64,000 nt of DNA from Escherichia coli (GTDB lineage: Bacteria > Pseudomonadota > Gammaproteobacteria > Enterobacterales > Enterobacteriaceae). Of the stretch, positions 1 through 49,755 are shown piece after piece (positions within the stretch are counted from its first letter, which is position 1; each line of letters begins with the position of its first letter). The stretch lies in NCBI RefSeq assembly GCF_017348835.2, contig NZ_CP071375.1; one strand, 5' to 3'. A model generated the notes under the pieces. It did not search any database, had not been told where the DNA came from, and saw only the letters and a program-made list of their open reading frames with translations. The translations under genes were made by a program, and so were the position numbers.

Positions 1-5366
<5,366 letters not shown>

Positions 5367-6929: not shown

Positions 6930-7886
6930 ATGTGGAAACGCTTACTTGTAGTCTCTGCAGTCTCGGCAGCCATGTCGTCTATGGCGTTGGCCGCTCCATT
7001 AACCGTAGGATTTTCGCAGGTCGGATCGGAATCTGGCTGGCGCGCCGCAGAAACCAATGTGGCGAAAAGTGAGGCCGAAAAACGCGGAATTACGCTGAAA
7101 ATTGCCGATGGTCAGCAAAAGCAGGAAAACCAGATTAAAGCGGTACGTTCCTTCGTCGCGCAAGGGGTGGATGCGATCTTTATCGCTCCGGTGGTTGCGA
7201 CTGGTTGGGAACCGGTATTAAAAGAGGCGAAAGATGCCGAAATCCCGGTCTTCTTGCTCGATCGTTCTATTGATGTGAAAGACAAATCTCTCTATATGAC
7301 CACCGTCACTGCCGACAACATTCTCGAAGGCAAGTTGATTGGTGACTGGCTGGTAAAAGAAGTGAATGGCAAACCATGCAACGTGGTGGAGCTGCAGGGC
7401 ACTGTTGGGGCCAGCGTCGCCATTGACCGTAAGAAAGGCTTTGCCGAAGCCATTAAGAATGCGCCAAATATCAAAATTATCCGCTCGCAGTCAGGTGACT
7501 TCACCCGCAGTAAAGGCAAAGAAGTCATGGAGAGCTTTATCAAAGCGGAAAACAACGGCAAAAACATCTGCATGGTTTACGCCCATAACGACGACATGGT
7601 GATTGGTGCAATTCAGGCAATTAAAGAAGCGGGCCTGAAACCAGGCAAAGATATTCTGACAGGTTCTATCGACGGCGTACCGGATATCTACAAAGCGATG
7701 ATTGATGGCGAAGCGAACGCCAGTGTTGAACTGACGCCGAATATGGCAGGTCCCGCCTTCGACGCGCTGGAGAAATACAAAAAAGACGGCACCATGCCTG
7801 AAAAGCTGACGCTGACCAAATCCACCCTTTATCTGCCTGATACCGCAAAAGAAGAGTTAGAGAAGAAGAAAAATATGGGGTATTGA
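6930..7886 (+). CDS. ytfQ: Periplasmic sugar-binding protein of the ABC transporter YtfQRT-YjfF (galactofuranose)
   Basis: 318-aa ORF with signal peptide (MWKRLLVVSAVSAAMSSMALA); first gene of the ytfQRT-yjfF cluster. Confidence 0.9.
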   Translation: MWKRLLVVSAVSAAMSSMALAAPLTVGFSQVGSESGWRAAETNVAKSEAEKRGITLKIADGQQKQENQIKAVRSFVAQGVDAIFIAPVVATGWEPVLKEAKDAEIPVFLLDRSIDVKDKSLYMTTVTADNILEGKLIGDWLVKEVNGKPCNVVELQGTVGASVAIDRKKGFAEAIKNAPNIKIIRSQSGDFTRSKGKEVMESFIKAENNGKNICMVYAHNDDMVIGAIQAIKEAGLKPGKDILTGSIDGVPDIYKAMIDGEANASVELTPNMAGPAFDALEKYKKDGTMPEKLTLTKSTLYLPDTAKEELEKKKNMGY

Positions 7887-7895
7887 GGGTTGCTA

Positions 7896-7997
7896 TGCCT
7901 GATGCCGATTCGTAGGCCGGATAAGGCGCTCGCGCCGCATCCGGCGGTGGTGCGCTGAAGCCTGATGCGACGCTTACCGCGTCTTATCATGCCTACT
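7896..7997. repeat. REP (repetitive extragenic palindromic) elements between ytfQ and ytfR
   Basis: Two copies of the REP core (gcctgatgcg...cgtaggccggataaggcg...cgccgcatccggc) in the intergenic region. Confidence 0.6.
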
Positions 7998-8025
7998 GGG
8001 AGCACGCTTTACACCGGGGGAAACC

Positions 8026-9528
8026 ATGACGACTAACCAACACCAGGAGATCCTCCGCACCGAAGGATTAAGTAAATTTTTCCCCGGCGTCAAAGCGTTA
8101 GACAACGTTGATTTCAGCCTGCGCCGCGGCGAAATCATGGCGCTGCTCGGTGAAAACGGGGCAGGAAAATCAACGCTAATCAAAGCATTAACTGGTGTAT
8201 ACCACGCCGATCGCGGCACCATCTGGCTGGAAGGCCAGGCTATCTCACCGAAAAATACCGCCCATGCACAACAACTCGGTATCGGCACCGTCTATCAGGA
8301 AGTAAACCTGCTACCCAATATGTCGGTCGCTGATAATCTATTTATAGGCCGCGAACCCAAACGCTTCGGCCTTCTACGCCGCAAAGAGATGGAAAAGCGC
8401 GCCACCGAACTGATGGCATCTTACGGTTTCTCCCTCGACGTGCGCGAACCGCTCAACCGCTTTTCAGTCGCGATGCAGCAAATCGTCGCTATTTGCCGGG
8501 CTATCGATCTCTCTGCCAAAGTGCTGATCCTCGATGAACCCACCGCCAGTCTCGACACCCAGGAAGTGGAGTTACTGTTTGACCTGATGCGTCAGTTGCG
8601 CGATCGCGGCGTCAGCCTGATTTTTGTCACTCACTTTCTCGATCAGGTCTATCAGGTCAGCGATCGGATCACCGTCTTACGCAACGGCAGTTTCGTAGGC
8701 TGTCGGGAAACGTGCGAGCTACCGCAGATCGAACTGGTAAAAATGATGCTGGGGCGCGAGCTGGATACCCACGCGCTACAGCGTGCCGGGCGAACATTGT
8801 TGAGCGACAAACCCGTTGCCGCGTTCAAAAATTACGGCAAAAAAGGAACGATCGCACCGTTTGATCTCGAAGTACGCCCCGGCGAGATCGTCGGTCTGGC
8901 TGGATTGCTGGGATCAGGACGTACCGAAACCGCCGAAGTGATCTTCGGTATCAAACCTGCTGACAGCGGCACGGCGTTGATCAAAGGCAAACCGCAAAAC
9001 CTGCGATCGCCACATCAGGCTTCGGTACTGGGCATTGGCTTCTGCCCGGAAGACAGGAAAACCGATGGCATCATCGCTGCCGCCTCGGTGCGGGAAAATA
9101 TCATCCTCGCTCTCCAGGCCCAGCGCGGCTGGCTACGTCCCATTTCCCGCAAAGAACAGCAAGAGATTGCCGAACGCTTTATCCGCCAGCTTGGCATTCG
9201 CACACCTTCAACTGAACAACCGATTGAATTTCTCTCTGGCGGCAATCAGCAAAAAGTGTTGCTTTCACGTTGGCTACTGACCCGACCGCAATTTCTGATC
9301 CTTGATGAGCCAACTCGCGGCATTGATGTTGGTGCCCACGCCGAGATCATCCGCCTGATTGAAACGCTATGCGCCGATGGTCTGGCGCTGCTGGTGATCT
9401 CCTCCGAACTGGAAGAACTGGTGGGCTATGCCGACCGGGTGATCATCATGCGCGATCGCAAACAGGTGGCGGAGATCCCGCTGGCAGAGCTTTCCGTTCC
9501 GGCGATCATGAACGCCATTGCGGCGTAA
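8026..9528 (+). CDS. ytfR: ABC transporter ATP-binding protein YtfR (two nucleotide-binding domains)
   Basis: 500-aa ORF with two Walker A motifs (GENGAGKST and GLLGSGRTE) and two LSGG signature motifs. Confidence 0.9.
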   Translation: MTTNQHQEILRTEGLSKFFPGVKALDNVDFSLRRGEIMALLGENGAGKSTLIKALTGVYHADRGTIWLEGQAISPKNTAHAQQLGIGTVYQEVNLLPNMSVADNLFIGREPKRFGLLRRKEMEKRATELMASYGFSLDVREPLNRFSVAMQQIVAICRAIDLSAKVLILDEPTASLDTQEVELLFDLMRQLRDRGVSLIFVTHFLDQVYQVSDRITVLRNGSFVGCRETCELPQIELVKMMLGRELDTHALQRAGRTLLSDKPVAAFKNYGKKGTIAPFDLEVRPGEIVGLAGLLGSGRTETAEVIFGIKPADSGTALIKGKPQNLRSPHQASVLGIGFCPEDRKTDGIIAAASVRENIILALQAQRGWLRPISRKEQQEIAERFIRQLGIRTPSTEQPIEFLSGGNQQKVLLSRWLLTRPQFLILDEPTRGIDVGAHAEIIRLIETLCADGLALLVISSELEELVGYADRVIIMRDRKQVAEIPLAELSVPAIMNAIAA

Positions 9529-10564: not shown

Positions 10565-11546
10565 TTTGCCACTGATGATCACCATCGGCGTCTTTGTGTT
10601 GGGTTATCTTTACTGCCTGACCCAGTTTCCCGGTTTTGCTTCCACAAGAGTGATCTGCAATATCCTGACCGATAACGCCTTTCTTGGGATCATTGCCGTT
10701 GGCATGACCTTTGTGATCCTCTCCGGTGGGATCGATCTCTCCGTCGGTTCGGTGATCGCCTTTACTGGCGTGTTTCTGGCAAAAGTGATTGGCGATTTCG
10801 GCCTCTCGCCGCTACTGGCGTTTCCGCTAGTGCTGGTGATGGGCTGTGCCTTCGGCGCATTTATGGGGCTTTTGATCGACGCCCTGAAGATCCCGGCATT
10901 TATCATTACCCTGGCGGGGATGTTCTTTTTGCGCGGTGTCAGCTATCTCGTTTCGGAAGAGTCGATTCCGATAAACCATCCCATTTATGACACGCTCTCA
11001 AGCCTTGCGTGGAAAATCCCTGGCGGCGGTCGCTTAAGTGCGATGGGACTGCTGATGTTGGCGGTGGTGGTTATCGGTATTTTCCTCGCGCATCGTACCC
11101 GTTTTGGTAATCAGGTATACGCCATTGGCGGCAACGCAACGTCGGCGAACCTGATGGGGATTTCCACTCGCAGCACCACTATTCGCATTTATATGCTTTC
11201 CACCGGACTGGCAACGCTGGCGGGGATTGTCTTCTCGATTTATACCCAGGCCGGATATGCGCTGGCGGGCGTAGGTGTGGAACTGGATGCTATCGCCTCA
11301 GTGGTAATTGGCGGTACGCTTCTGAGCGGTGGCGTTGGAACGGTATTAGGGACGCTTTTTGGCGTGGCGATTCAGGGACTGATTCAGACTTACATAAACT
11401 TTGATGGCACGCTGAGCTCATGGTGGACGAAAATCGCCATCGGTATTTTGTTGTTTATTTTTATAGCATTACAGCGTGGATTAACGGTGCTGTGGGAGAA
11501 TCGTCAGAGTTCGCCAGTGACAAGAGTCAACATTGCGCAGCGATAA
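10551..11546 (+). CDS. yjfF: ABC transporter permease YjfF
   Basis: 331-aa hydrophobic ORF with GTG start, overlapping the ytfT stop. Confidence 0.85.
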   Translation: MIKRNLPLMITIGVFVLGYLYCLTQFPGFASTRVICNILTDNAFLGIIAVGMTFVILSGGIDLSVGSVIAFTGVFLAKVIGDFGLSPLLAFPLVLVMGCAFGAFMGLLIDALKIPAFIITLAGMFFLRGVSYLVSEESIPINHPIYDTLSSLAWKIPGGGRLSAMGLLMLAVVVIGIFLAHRTRFGNQVYAIGGNATSANLMGISTRSTTIRIYMLSTGLATLAGIVFSIYTQAGYALAGVGVELDAIASVVIGGTLLSGGVGTVLGTLFGVAIQGLIQTYINFDGTLSSWWTKIAIGILLFIFIALQRGLTVLWENRQSSPVTRVNIAQR

Positions 11547-14920: not shown

Positions 14921-16273
14921 ATGGCACTTGCAATGAAAGTAATCTCTCAAGTTGAAGCGCAGCGCAAGATTCTGGAAGAAGCAGTTTCCACTGCGCTGGA
15001 GTTGGCCTCAGGCAAATCGGACGGTGCGGAAGTTGCCGTCAGCAAGACCACCGGCATTAGCGTAAGCACGCGTTATGGTGAAGTGGAGAATGTTGAATTC
15101 AATAGCGATGGCGCGCTGGGGATCACTGTTTATCACCAGAACCGCAAAGGTAGCGCATCATCCACCGATTTAAGCCCGCAGGCCATTGCCCGCACCGTAC
15201 AGGCGGCTCTGGATATTGCCCGTTATACCTCGCCAGATCCCTGTGCCGGCGTGGCAGACAAAGAGCTGCTGGCCTTTGAGGCACCGGATCTCGATTTGTT
15301 CCACCCTGCGGAAGTTTCCCCGGATGAAGCCATTGAACTGGCGGCCCGCGCAGAACAGGCAGCATTACAGGCGGACAAACGTATCACCAATACCGAAGGT
15401 GGCAGCTTTAACAGCCACTACGGTGTCAAAGTTTTTGGCAACAGCCACGGCATGTTGCAGGGTTACTGCTCTACGCGTCATTCGCTCTCCAGCTGTGTAA
15501 TTGCCGAAGAAAATGGCGATATGGAGCGTGATTACGCCTACACCATTGGTCGTGCGATGAGCGATCTGCAAACGCCAGAGTGGGTTGGGGCCGACTGTGC
15601 TCGCCGTACTTTATCGCGCCTGTCACCGCGTAAACTCTCCACCATGAAAGCGCCGATCATTTTTGCCAATGAAGTGGCAACCGGGCTTTTTGGGCATCTG
15701 GTGGGGGCGATAGCGGGTGGAGCGGTTTACCGTAAATCTACCTTCCTGCTGGATTCGCTGGGTAAACAAATTCTGCCGGACTGGCTGACCATTGAAGAGC
15801 ATCCGCATCTGCTGAAAGGGCTGGCATCGACGCCATTTGACAGCGAAGGTGTGCGCACCGAGCGTCGCGATATTATTAAAGATGGCATCCTGACTCAGTG
15901 GCTGCTGACCAGCTATTCGGCGCGAAAACTGGGGCTGAAAAGCACCGGACATGCGGGCGGTATTCACAACTGGCGGATTGCCGGACAAGGGCTAAGCTTC
16001 GAACAAATGCTCAAAGAGATGGGCACCGGGCTGGTGGTGACGGAGCTGATGGGCCAGGGCGTGAGTGCAATTACCGGTGATTATTCCCGTGGTGCGGCGG
16101 GCTTCTGGGTAGAAAACGGCGAAATTCAGTATCCGGTTAGCGAAATCACCATCGCAGGTAATTTAAAAGATATGTGGCGCAATATTGTCACCGTCGGTAA
16201 CGATATTGAAACACGCAGTAATATACAGTGTGGTTCTGTGCTGTTGCCGGAGATGAAAATCGCCGGGCAGTAA
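14921..16273 (+). CDS. pmbA: Metalloprotease PmbA (TldE)
   Basis: 450-aa ORF of the size and position of E. coli PmbA. Confidence 0.9.
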
Positions 16274-23159: not shown

Positions 23160-24107
23160 TCAGGACAGGGTGGCGGGGATGATGATTTGTTGCGGTTCGC
23201 TGCGCCCGGTTACCTGTGCGATCAATTGGCAGGCCGCCTGGCGTCCAGCTTCGGCGTAACCGGGATCTACGGTGACGATCTCCGGATGGAGGAATTTCAT
23301 TAACGGTGTATTACCGACGCTCGCCAGTTGCAAGGTGTCGATGCGTTGCTCTTGCAGGTATTTACTTGCGCCAAGTGCCAGCGTGTCGGTTGCGCACAGT
23401 AACGCAGTAGTTTCAGGCGTAATCACTTTTGCCACGTTCTCATAGCCTTGCTTCATAGCAAGCCCTGGCAGAGCGGCAACGGGATGCAGTTTATGCGCTT
23501 TGCAGAACGCCAGGTAGGCTTCGTGACGTCGCTTACCGGTTGTCACGTCACTATGCGGCACGCCGAGATAACTGATATTACGATGCCCCTGGTCATACAG
23601 CCGTTGCATCAGGATCTTGATTGCCCCTTCGTCGTCATAACAGACCGAAGCAAAGCCTTTTGCGTTACGCGCCAGCAGAACCAGCGATGACTGCCAGTGG
23701 GCTAACATTTCTTCTGTTATGCCAGTAAAACCGAACAGCACTACGCCGTCGATATTACGCCGTTTCAGCACCCCCAAATGTTCGGCAACTAATTGTGGGG
23801 AAAACTGACTTTCCATCATGATTGGGTCGTAACCTTGTTCATAGAACGCTGGCAGCATGGTTTGAACGGCGAGATTTTCTGACAACGAATCCAGACGGGT
23901 AACAATGATGGCGACCACTTTATCGCTTTGCCCACGCATAGCGCGCGCAGAGCGGGAAGGGGAAAATCCATGCTGATTCATCACTGCTTCAACACGCTCG
24001 CGGGTGCGCTGGCTCACGCCGCTTTCGTTATTCAGCACCCGGGAAACTGTAGATTTCCCCACGCCGCTTAAGCGTGCGATGTCTTTGATGGTCAGCCGAT
24101 TTTGCAT
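23160..24107 (-). CDS. treR: Trehalose operon repressor (LacI family)
   Basis: 315-aa ORF with N-terminal helix-turn-helix (MQNRLTIKDIARLSGVGKSTVSRVLN). Confidence 0.9.
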   Translation of the reverse strand: MQNRLTIKDIARLSGVGKSTVSRVLNNESGVSQRTRERVEAVMNQHGFSPSRSARAMRGQSDKVVAIIVTRLDSLSENLAVQTMLPAFYEQGYDPIMMESQFSPQLVAEHLGVLKRRNIDGVVLFGFTGITEEMLAHWQSSLVLLARNAKGFASVCYDDEGAIKILMQRLYDQGHRNISYLGVPHSDVTTGKRRHEAYLAFCKAHKLHPVAALPGLAMKQGYENVAKVITPETTALLCATDTLALGASKYLQEQRIDTLQLASVGNTPLMKFLHPEIVTVDPGYAEAGRQAACQLIAQVTGRSEPQQIIIPATLS

Positions 24108-45345: not shown

Positions 45346-45407
45346 TTGTTAGCAAAGTGTGCTTCGTTCATGCCTGAAAAATCATGAAAATCCAATATAT
45401 TGCAGTG

Positions 45408-45447
45408 GTGTAGGCATGATAAGACGCGCCAGCGTCGCATCAGGCAA
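45408..45447. repeat. REP element between lptG and yjgR
   Basis: gtaggcatgataagacgcgccagcgtcgcatcaggc REP core. Confidence 0.5.
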
Positions 45448-45465
45448 AGACAAATCGCGCCTGAC

Positions 45466-46968
45466 TTACCTTCTTCTTCCCCCCAGCAAACTCCCCAACA
45501 TCCCACGTACAATCTGATTCGTCACCTGGCGGGCGGCGCTTTTCGCCATTGTTTGCACCACACCATCTTTCTTCCCGCCGCGTGGTCCGGTAGTGCCAAA
45601 CAAAATATCCTTCAATCCACCAAGAATGCCGTCATCCACCGCCACCTCTTTCCCTTTCACGGCAGGATTATTTTGCTGCTCGGCGCTTGCCTGTACGCCT
45701 TTTTGCAACATCTCATAGGCGGATTCCCGGTCCACGTCATCCTCGTACTTGCCATACACCGGAGAGTGATTAATCAAGCCATTACGCTCATCTTCCGTCA
45801 CCGGTCCCATCCGCGAACAAGGCGCAATCACCATCGCCCGTTCCACCACAGAAGGGCTTCCTTTCGCATCCAGAAAAGAGATCAACGCCTCGCCGGTGCC
45901 CAGTTCCTGAATCGCCTTTTCGGTATCAAATGCCGGATTGACCCGCATGGTTTGCGCCGCAGCTTTTACCGCTTTCTGATCTTTGGGCGTAAAAGTCCGC
46001 AAAGCGTGTTGAACGCGATTACCGAGCTGGCCGAGCACGTTATCCGGAATATCGGACGGATTTTGCGAAACGAACCAGACGCCCACGCCTTTTGAGCGAA
46101 TAAGCCTTATCACCTGCTCAATCTTATCCAGCAGTACCTGCGGTGCATCGTTAAACAGCAGATGTGCCTCGTCGAAGAAAAACACCAGTTTTGGTTTCTC
46201 CAGATCGCCCGCTTCCGGCAATTGTTCATACAACTCCGAGAGCATCCACAACAGGCTGGCGGCATACAGTTTCGGCATCTGATAAAGCTTCTCGGCGCTG
46301 AGGATATTGATAACGCCTTTACCGTTGGCATCGGTGCGCATCCAGTCTTTGATATCCAGCATCGGCTCACCAAAGAAGTGTGCTGCGCCTTGCTGTTCCA
46401 GCGACAACAGCCCGCGCTGGATGGCACCAACCGATGCGCTACTGATATTTCCGTACTGATTCTGGAAAGATTTGGCGTTATCGCCGATGTACTGGGTAAT
46501 CGCCCGCAAATCTTTAAAGTCGAGCAGTAACAGCCCCTGATCGTCAGCAATGCGGAAGATGATATTCAGCACGCCAGACTGCACATCGTTGAGATTCAAC
46601 AGCCGCGCCAGCAACAGCGGCCCCAGATCCGAAACCGTCGCCCGCACCGGATGGCCTTTCTCGCCAAAGATATCCCACACCACCACCGGATTGGCATGCG
46701 GTTGCCAGTCATTGACGCCGATATTTTTAAGCCTTGTGAGCAGTTTTTCCGACGCCGTTCCTGCCTGCGCGATACCGGTCAGATCGCCTTTCACATCAGC
46801 CATAAACACCGGCACGCCGATTTCCGACAATGACTCTGCCAGTTTTTGCAGCGTAACGGTTTTACCCGTCCCCGTTGCGCCAGTAATCAGCCCGTGACGG
46901 TTAGCCATTCCCGGCAGTAAAAACAGTTCTGTGTCCGGCGTGCGGGCAATTAACAGGGGTTCGCTCAT
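45466..46968 (-). CDS. yjgR: P-loop NTPase-like protein YjgR (DUF853)
   Basis: Internal Met start ([41 protein letters not shown]…) gives 500 aa with a Walker A motif. Confidence 0.85.
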
Positions 46969-47097
46969 GAGATTTCCTCCAGTTTCCTGCCTGGAGTATA
47001 GGCAACGGCTGTGCACTCTTCACCGCTAAATTCAGCAGATTGCGAGACGCCTTCCAAAGAGATTTAAGTGCCGGGCGACAGGCACCCGGCAAAGGGA

Positions 47098-48117
47098 TCA
47101 GAAGTCGGCTTTCAGGACCACGCGGTAGCGCGCTTTACCATCGCGTACATGCTGGATGGCGTCGTTAATTTTCGACATCGGGAACAGTTCGGTGGTCGGC
47201 GCAACCTTGCTGCGGGCGGCAAAACGCATCAGCTTACGCAGCTCATAAGGCGTGCCGGTAGCAGAACCAGAGATGCTGCGGTCGCCCGCAATTAACGTAA
47301 AGGCCGGAACAGACAGCGGCGTGAGAACCGCACCGACCGTATGGAAATTACCGCCATAGGTCAGCGCCTCAAAATAAGGCTGCCAGTCGAGGCTGACGTT
47401 CACAGTATTGATAATGAGATCAAACTGCCCCGACAGGGCTTTCAGTGCCTGCGGATCGCGGCTATTCACCACTTTATCGGCACCCATCGCCAGTACTTCC
47501 TGCTCTTTCGCCGGATTAGAACTAAAGGCCGTCACCTCGCATCCCATTGCGTGCAGAAGTTTTATAGCGATATGCCCCAGCCCGCCAATACCAATTACCC
47601 CAACGCGGCTGGTAGCAGTGATATGGTGCATCAACAGTGGTTTAAAGACCGTGATACCGCCGCACAACAGCGGCCCGGTGGACTCGATATCAATATTTTC
47701 TGGCAGTGGAATCACCCATTGCCAGTCCGCACGCAACTTCTCGGCAAAGCCACCGCGATTCATAATCGTCGGCACCGCACCTTGCTCGCAGTTGATCTGA
47801 TTACCGCTAATACAGGCGTCGCAGTGACCACAGCTACGCGCCGTCCAGCCAATCCCGACACGCTGACCGACCTGCAAACCTTTATCCTGCGCGGCGCTCC
47901 CGAGTGCCACCACGCGCCCAATCACCTCATGCCCGGCAACCAGCGGATATTGTGAAAATCCCCATTCGTTATCGATCATCGACAGATCGGAATGACAAAT
48001 CCCGCAGTAATCCACCTGCACTTCAACATCTTGTGGCTTCAGCTCACCGGGATCGTACTCATAAACTTCCAGTTCGCCGCCCGCTTCTTTTGCGGCATAG
48101 CTTTTTATCATCGACAT
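47098..48117 (-). CDS. ahr: NADPH-dependent aldehyde reductase Ahr (YjgB), zinc-type alcohol dehydrogenase
   Basis: Internal Met start ([53 protein letters not shown]…) gives 339 aa with zinc-ADH motifs. Confidence 0.85.
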
Positions 48118-48312
48118 TTTTGGGTCCTTCTCTGGTGTTGTTTGGGAAGTGTAGAGCATGGCAGGGCGGGGTGCCTGGAGTGTGACAAAGGTTACATATC
48201 GCTGAGTGTAATGCTGAAAATTTCAGCACTTAGCGAGGTGGGTGCAAGCTGGCGCTTGCATGGTGGCGTGCGACAGGTATAATCCACAACGTTTTCCGCA
48301 TACCTCTTCAGT

Positions 48313-48397
48313 GCCGAAGTGGCGAAATCGGTAGACGCAGTTGATTCAAAATCAACCGTAGAAATACGTGCCGGTTCGAGTCCGGCCTTCGGCACCA
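48313..48397 (+). tRNA. leuX: tRNA-Leu (anticodon CAA)
   Basis: 85-nt sequence gccgaagtggcgaaatcggtagacgcagttgattcaaaatcaaccgtagaaatacgtgccggttcgagtccggccttcggcacca, with the CAA anticodon in the loop and an encoded CCA end. Confidence 0.95.
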
Positions 48398-48930: not shown

Positions 48931-49755
48931 ATGATAAAGCCATTTTCTGTGAGGTATGGTCATGTTGACGTTAGAGAGCATGTCCAGCTGAATGATCTTA
49001 ATTCTGATACACGCATAGCATTGTGGAATTGCTTATATCTTTTCCTTTGGACTAACAATCGTCAAACTGCTACAGCAACAAAATGTGCGCAGTCTGTGTG
49101 GATATATTATCTAAATCAACCTGCGGATAATATTCCTCGTTATGAAAGTGGATACAAAAGTGATAAGACGTTGCTGACTGCTATCCGAGATTATATATAT
49201 GGGGAAGCATGGTATTTGGTATATGATTTAATTGAGTTCATCATTGAGAGAACTAATTCATATATTAATCTATCGAAGCATCTCAATTCCATCTTTAAAA
49301 AGCATGGCGTTGGTTATACCATAATAAATGGTTGTATTACTCCTATTTCAAATGATAACGAAATTGAAAGTGTTCAGAACGCAGTTGATAATGGCACTGA
49401 TTCATCGCGTAGCCATTTCGAAAGGGCGTTACAACTAATGACGGATAGAGAGCAGCCAGACTACAGAAACTCGATTAAAGAGTCTATCTCTGCAATTGAA
49501 TCTTTATGCAGGAAAATCACGGGCAATGATAAAGGAACCTTGGGGGCTTGTCTTAAAGCTATAGAGGAAAAAGGATATATACACTCTGCAATGAAAGGCG
49601 CTTTTAGTCAGCTCTATGGTTATACAAGTGATCAGGGTGGAATACGTCATGCGCTAACAGAAGAAGATGTAAATCCTACCTTAGCTGAAGCTAAATTTAT
49701 GTTAGTCACTTGCAGTGCGTTCAGTAATTATCTGTTGTCAAAAATAAGTGATTAA
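48931..49755 (+). CDS. Hypothetical protein, 274 aa, AT-rich, no motif recognised by eye
   Basis: Long uninterrupted ORF with a good Shine-Dalgarno (aggggaag) before the ATG; codon usage and base composition atypical of the flanking core genes; about 530 bp downstream of leuX. Confidence 0.6.
   Translation: MIKPFSVRYGHVDVREHVQLNDLNSDTRIALWNCLYLFLWTNNRQTATATKCAQSVWIYYLNQPADNIPRYESGYKSDKTLLTAIRDYIYGEAWYLVYDLIEFIIERTNSYINLSKHLNSIFKKHGVGYTIINGCITPISNDNEIESVQNAVDNGTDSSRSHFERALQLMTDREQPDYRNSIKESISAIESLCRKITGNDKGTLGACLKAIEEKGYIHSAMKGAFSQLYGYTSDQGGIRHALTEEDVNPTLAEAKFMLVTCSAFSNYLLSKISD

Follow-up and report, generated by a model that had tools for sequence, protein, structure and literature searches.

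We describe the junction between yjgR and ahr in a 64-kb stretch of an Escherichia coli chromosome (hereafter the window) which, with a probability that we put at roughly 90%, represents one of the two states of a presence/absence polymorphism, namely an old allele that lacks idn and is called here the 'empty slot'. One allele at this site would consist of a 90-bp spacer that supplies a terminator hairpin to ahr, and the other of the 5.1-kb GntII/idn cassette (idnR, idnT, idnO, idnD and idnK), which provides for the catabolism of L-idonate and 5-ketogluconate; both would be exchanged among E. coli lineages when homologous recombination takes place in the genes on either side. This reading is carried by the exact breakpoints of the window against K-12, by the frequency of the same junction in 5,426 complete E. 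coli genomes and by the recurrence of both arrangements in a second genus.

The yjgR–ahr interval compared with K-12

The slot is framed by two minus-strand genes whose names follow the RefSeq annotation of strain PE164, in which both are 100% identical to those in the window. On its left, yjgR (45466–46968), present in the open reading frame list, encodes a HerA-like P-loop ATPase of 500 amino acids, for which NCBIfam models gave just weak HerA/CedD/VirB4-type matches; on its right, ahr (also yjgB; 47098–48117) encodes an NADPH-dependent aldehyde reductase of 339 amino acids that passes the curated cut-off of NCBIfam model NF047908 (551.6 versus 470 bits, spanning profile positions 1–335 of 335). 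By tblastn, the two proteins are 98% (YjgR) and 98.8% (Ahr) identical to their K-12 counterparts. Read on the plus strand, the ATG of yjgR is the 'cat' at 46966–46968 and the stop codon of ahr is the 'tca' at 47098–47100, and the sequence and the open reading frame list agree on a gap of exactly 129 bp between the genes (46969–47097). A short repeat in the neighbouring lptG–yjgR gap (45410–45446), probably a REP-type element, has many matches per genome (median 8) and is also found on some plasmids.

The annotated gene order in K-12 is yjgR-idnR-idnT-idnO-idnD-idnK-ahr. This is the position that the original prediction, made from the letters of the sequence, had given for the idn cluster; its further claims, that yjgR and ahr are neighbours here with 129 bp between them and that the idn cluster is absent from their junction, are equally borne out by the size of the gap and by the alignment and protein searches described below. 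Aligned pairwise with K-12, the window departs at two points: position 47007 corresponds to position 10608 of the K-12 locus, and position 47098, at the ahr stop codon, to position 15696. Between them, a spacer of 90 bp (47008–47097; no strand assigned) stands where K-12 has 5,087 bp, and it is unrelated to the K-12 cassette. We considered remnants of the idn cassette within the spacer and rejected them, as a sensitive local alignment did no better than shuffled sequence (best score 14; shuffles, mean 13.4 and maximum 16). As judged from these alignments, the difference between the window and K-12 is a replacement by unrelated sequence and not a plain insertion or deletion.

When the five K-12 Idn proteins were searched by tblastn against the whole 64 kb, they returned just remote paralogues at 21–27% identity, comprising a LacI-family gene (23211–24104, 21%), a short-chain dehydrogenase (30216–30908, 27%) and, as the match of IdnD, ahr itself (26%). 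The genes whose presence between yjgR and ahr defines the GntII/idn cluster (idnD, idnO, idnT, idnR and idnK) were thus found neither at the junction nor elsewhere in the window. In K-12 this locus was reportedly described by Bausch and colleagues in 1998 as idnK together with idnDOTR, acting in the catabolism of L-idonate. The window shares with it the slot itself, between yjgR and ahr and near leuX, and the same flanking genes, but it lacks the five genes and has the 90-bp spacer instead. It shows the features of an empty-slot allele, in that the flanking genes are adjacent and the breakpoints fall at the edge of a conserved 39-bp segment and at the ahr stop.

This conserved segment (46969–47007, minus strand; GTTGCCTATACTCCAGGCAGGAAACTGGAGGAAATCTC in yjgR sense) lies directly upstream of the yjgR ATG and is kept in every slot allele, whatever stands upstream of it. 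It is also present in E. albertii, in both Citrobacter genomes, in Enterobacter cloacae and in Pseudocitrobacter, and its conservation spans five genera. A TATACT box lies within it, as does a short CTCCAG/CTGGAG stem, the 3′ arm of which overlaps a GGAGG ribosome-binding site, and the segment could serve as the core promoter of yjgR or as a 5′ untranslated element that controls its translation. From these comparisons, the slot is bounded by the 39-bp segment on the left and by the ahr stop codon on the right.

Frequency of the idn-free junction in E. coli

Population counts were made across 5,426 complete E. coli genomes. Adjacency of yjgR and ahr, scored where at least 80% of a 2.9-kb query was covered, was found in 3,212 of them (59%), and the 90-bp spacer in 3,222, with one copy each; in 3,211 genomes the spacer was at least 80% covered at 95–100% identity. 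The K-12-type yjgR–idnR junction occurs in 2,052 genomes (38%), and those without it all break at one and the same nucleotide (query position 309). Other variants of the junction account for about 3% of genomes. Any DNA of the idn cassette was detected in 2,055 genomes, at a median of one and a maximum of two places per genome, and never on a plasmid. With 2,052 junctions against 2,055 idn-bearing genomes, the idn cluster is practically confined to the yjgR–ahr slot, and the majority of E. coli genomes have the idn-free arrangement.

These counts bear on two ways in which the idn genes might have escaped notice. The first, raised together with the original prediction, is that a misassembly collapsed the region and hid idn genes that are really present at the junction. 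We found no repeats at the breakpoints on which such a collapse could have occurred, the finished PE164 genome contains an identical 2.9 kb, and a collapse artefact is ruled out by the recurrence of the same junction in 3,212 finished genomes; we accord this account practically no credence. The other is that the idn genes were relocated to a different chromosomal or plasmid site of the source genome, of which just the 64 kb of the window were in view. Against this, 2,052 of the 2,055 idn-bearing genomes have idn joined to yjgR at this very site, no plasmid copies were seen, the carriers of the spacer (3,222) and of idn (2,055) together sum to less than 5,426, and the window itself holds no idn orthologue by tblastn. 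Relocation is accordingly a most improbable account, and the idn-free allele of a two-state polymorphism is the reading that we carry forward.

The absence of idn had also been taken to support a non-K-12 background. That the window is not K-12 holds, and the junction marks it cleanly as derived from neither K-12 nor BL21. As a guide to ancestry beyond this the marker is weak, since an allele carried by 3,212 of 5,426 genomes excludes K-12 and tells little else about the background. The sequences closest to the window come from pig and farm isolates, at 99.9–100% identity.

Variable presence of idn has been recorded before. In the parts of the published reports available here, the idn genes are accessory, with a frequency of about 31% among pks-negative genomes as opposed to 83% among pks-positive ones (PMC8545132); ST131 H30 and H22 are described as without idnK (PMC5369007); and genes for L-idonate degradation are over-represented in HUS-associated non-O157 STEC (PMC4216125). 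The three sources describe the same presence/absence polymorphism, with frequencies of 31–83% depending on lineage that are compatible with the 38% obtained here; in these portions they address gene presence only, whereas the junctions, the spacer and its conservation across species are worked out in this study. The presence or absence of idn is thus an already documented and common strain difference, and the finding as such is ordinary.

The slot in other genera and the hairpin downstream of ahr

To place the junction beyond E. coli, we took a single genome for each species and searched it with YjgR and then, by tblastn, with the K-12 proteins; the statements below concern the loci among the matches listed, which include neither Salmonella nor E. 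fergusonii. In E. albertii, ahr and yjgR are adjacent and separated by a spacer almost identical to that of the window, and in Citrobacter werkmanii they are likewise adjacent, with a spacer that has diverged yet is clearly homologous. The cassette fills this slot in Citrobacter sp. FP75, arranged as in K-12 (ahr-idnK-idnD-idnO-idnT-idnR-yjgR), with the same junction: the idnR–yjgR junction sequence is homologous between K-12 and FP75, and the two differ to a similar degree in the cassettes (15–27%) and in the flanks (14–24%). The slot of Enterobacter cloacae, of about 1.8 kb, is occupied by a predicted ATP-dependent glycerone (dihydroxyacetone) kinase of 548 amino acids on the opposite strand (locus coordinates 7217–8863; TIGR02361, 575.8 bits), and the gaps in Pseudocitrobacter faecalis and Enterobacter sp. 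Ag1 are similar to it in size. Since the spacer is common to E. albertii and C. werkmanii, the empty allele is old and not the product of a recent deletion; since each of the two alleles is known from Escherichia as well as Citrobacter, both are old. As to whether the cassette was gained or lost, both directions are compatible with a survey in which both genera hold both alleles and in which Salmonella and E. fergusonii do not figure.

Two further E. coli loci deserve separate mention. Strain N50 (NZ_CM165889.1; locus 3266–3651) has a third allele, with a copy of the spacer that is 81% identical to that of the window, followed by an ahr that has lost about 750 bp internally; its yjgR is just 86% identical to that of K-12, which suggests a cryptic-clade-like import. 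Strain MLI104K2 (NZ_CP116925.1; locus 3440–4040) was considered as a decayed-idn intermediate, with the spacer joined to idnK, and was rejected. In this RefSeq genome, which is designated complete, the yjgR–ahr gap contains runs of G, C and A homopolymers, scraps of idnR and idnT and an annotated hypothetical protein, and the insert of about 900 bp, ridden with homopolymers, looks like an artefact of long-read assembly or polishing.

Within the spacer of the window, a stem-loop (47069–47091, minus strand) begins 6 nt past the ahr stop codon. Its 9-bp stem is formed by the arms tgccgggcg (47069–47077) and cacccggca (47083–47091) around a loop of 5 nt (47078–47082), so that the imperfect hairpin which the original prediction had seen in the 129 bp is real. 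On the plus strand the stem has one C/A mismatch; in the minus-strand (ahr-sense) RNA a G–U pair stands at this place, so that the stem, with seven G–C pairs, is complete in the ahr-sense RNA only. That RNA reads UGA-UCCCUU-UGCCGGGUG-CCUGU-CGCCCGGCA-CUUAAAUCUCUUU, where UGCCGGGUG and CGCCCGGCA are the arms of the stem.

Several properties of this hairpin recall a Rho-independent terminator: a GC-rich stem (9 bp) closed by a 5-nt loop, 6 nt past the stop codon on the sense strand, a tail that contains U residues, and corresponding stems in other alleles and genera. It departs from that model in its U-tract, which is weak and interrupted (CUUAAAUCUCUUU) and passes a lenient scan in which 0.9 sites per 500 bp are expected by chance. 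By itself the hairpin is statistically unremarkable: the consensus terminator scan of the 500-bp region gave one site, on the minus strand, against 0.9 expected, and the fold, taken over 63 nt, was not significantly better than that of shuffled sequences (z about −1.8). Strong stem-loops of differing sequence lie within about 7–12 nt of the ahr stop in seven of eight alleles or genera, among them K-12, Citrobacter FP75, E. albertii, C. werkmanii, Pseudocitrobacter and Enterobacter Ag1, with E. cloacae as the exception. The stem of K-12 lies within the 3′ end of idnK, and in idn+ alleles the terminator would sit between the convergent idnK and ahr. Because the position of the stem is conserved and its G–U pair is specific to one strand, an ahr terminator is the best reading, and from position and fold we regard the hairpin as most likely the transcription terminator of ahr.

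The spacer also weighs on what remains of the alternatives. A recent deletion of idn in the lineage of this strain, from a K-12-like ancestor, draws some plausibility from the cassette itself, which 38% of E. coli genomes and one Citrobacter carry here; this makes an idn+ ancestor conceivable at some depth. Such an event could not, however, have made 90 bp that are missing from the K-12 allele, and the same spacer with the same breakpoints recurs in 3,212–3,222 genomes and in E. albertii, C. werkmanii and N50; we therefore hold a recent deletion to be very unlikely. It is also conceivable, if improbable, that the spacer encodes a functional element of its own, for example a small RNA or a site that regulates yjgR, either in addition to the ahr terminator or in its place. 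Its conservation from E. coli to C. werkmanii, which includes the block CTCGCAATCT...AATTTAGCGGTGAAGAGTGC, is more than a bare terminator needs. Yet no Rfam family matched at E ≤ 1 across 46700–47400, no sigma-70-like promoter was detected across 46800–47300, the fold of the whole spacer was no better than that of shuffled sequences (z = −0.78), and idn+ strains do entirely without the spacer. An old empty-slot allele in which the spacer would furnish the terminator of ahr is the account that we retain.

Diversity and probable recombination around the slot, and expected phenotype

Sequence diversity was compared in 14 E. coli strains, seven of them idn+ and seven idn−, a small sample picked from the spread of hits and not at random. 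Across these 14 strains, pairwise diversity was mostly 2–7% in yjgR and ahr, and averaged about 1.9% in lptG. Within the seven idn+ strains, the cassette differed by 0.0–1.4% per 250-bp interval, with a mean of about 0.7%, and the immediately adjacent yjgR and ahr by 4–5%; among all 2,055 cassettes, 1,973 are at least 99% identical to that of K-12. Towards the junction, divergence between the idn+ and idn− flanks increases over no more than the final 100 bp of ahr (net 4.2%), and yjgR shows no increase at all. Four synonymous sites at the very end of ahr (positions 1002, 1003, 1014 and 1017 of the gene, within its final 19 nt, 47098–47116) fully split the seven idn+ from the seven idn− strains, and no site in yjgR separates the two classes in this sample; the cassette-linked haplotype thus appears to reach just inside ahr. 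We had considered two deeply separated haplotype blocks, which these data do not support, as linkage is very short and yjgR shows no rise. One and the same Ahr protein (WP_001300770.1) is annotated in the idn− strain 142 and in the idn+ strain 2014C-4423, and this sharing, together with the confinement of class-separating sites to the end of ahr, fits flanks that recombine freely.

The leuX–fim region, in which yjgR and ahr lie, is known for integration and homologous recombination and as a major hotspot of phylogenetic incongruence (Touchon et al. 2009, PMC2617782). The junction resembles it in lying 0.2–1.3 kb from leuX and in having flanks whose pairwise divergence among E. coli strains, at 3–7%, exceeds the value of about 1.9% for lptG, and the high diversity of yjgR and ahr fits such a recombination hotspot. 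The slot differs in that it is not a tRNA-linked integrase island: we found no integrase, direct repeats or mobile-element ends flanking the idn cassette. As regards the surroundings, the leuX tRNA-Leu gene lies at 48313–48397, about 200 bp beyond ahr, and a strain-specific island, as annotated in PE164 and its relatives, extends from 48931 onward. It comprises an AbiJ-NTD4 domain gene (48931–49755), IS30 and IS3 fragments and an HNH endonuclease gene, with fec genes further on; K-12 has a different integrase island at the corresponding position on the leuX side. Matches at 99% identity or more to the window over 45400–48300 were found in just 48 of 5,442 matching records.

Taken more broadly, and as a tentative proposal that we consider possible but doubtful, yjgR–ahr could be a long-lived cassette slot that spans genera and holds the spacer, idn or, in Enterobacter and Pseudocitrobacter, a glycerone kinase, with a recent, selected spread of a single E. 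coli idn haplotype by homologous recombination. The recent spread of one cassette haplotype is a hypothesis at which our small sample hints. What is added to the known variability of idn is modest detail of a population-genetic kind, namely the exact junctions, a replacement spacer found across species and a cassette far less diverse than its flanks. On a small scale, the locus may illustrate the exchange of a metabolic cassette through recombination in its flanks near the leuX hotspot.

For the strain itself, the direct view extends over 64 kb, and the population counts suggest that idn is absent from the rest of its genome as well. It would then be without the subsidiary GntII route and would not be expected to grow on L-idonate or to catabolize L-idonate or 5-ketogluconate by way of GntII, and its use of gluconate via GntI, whose genes lie outside the window, should be unaffected.
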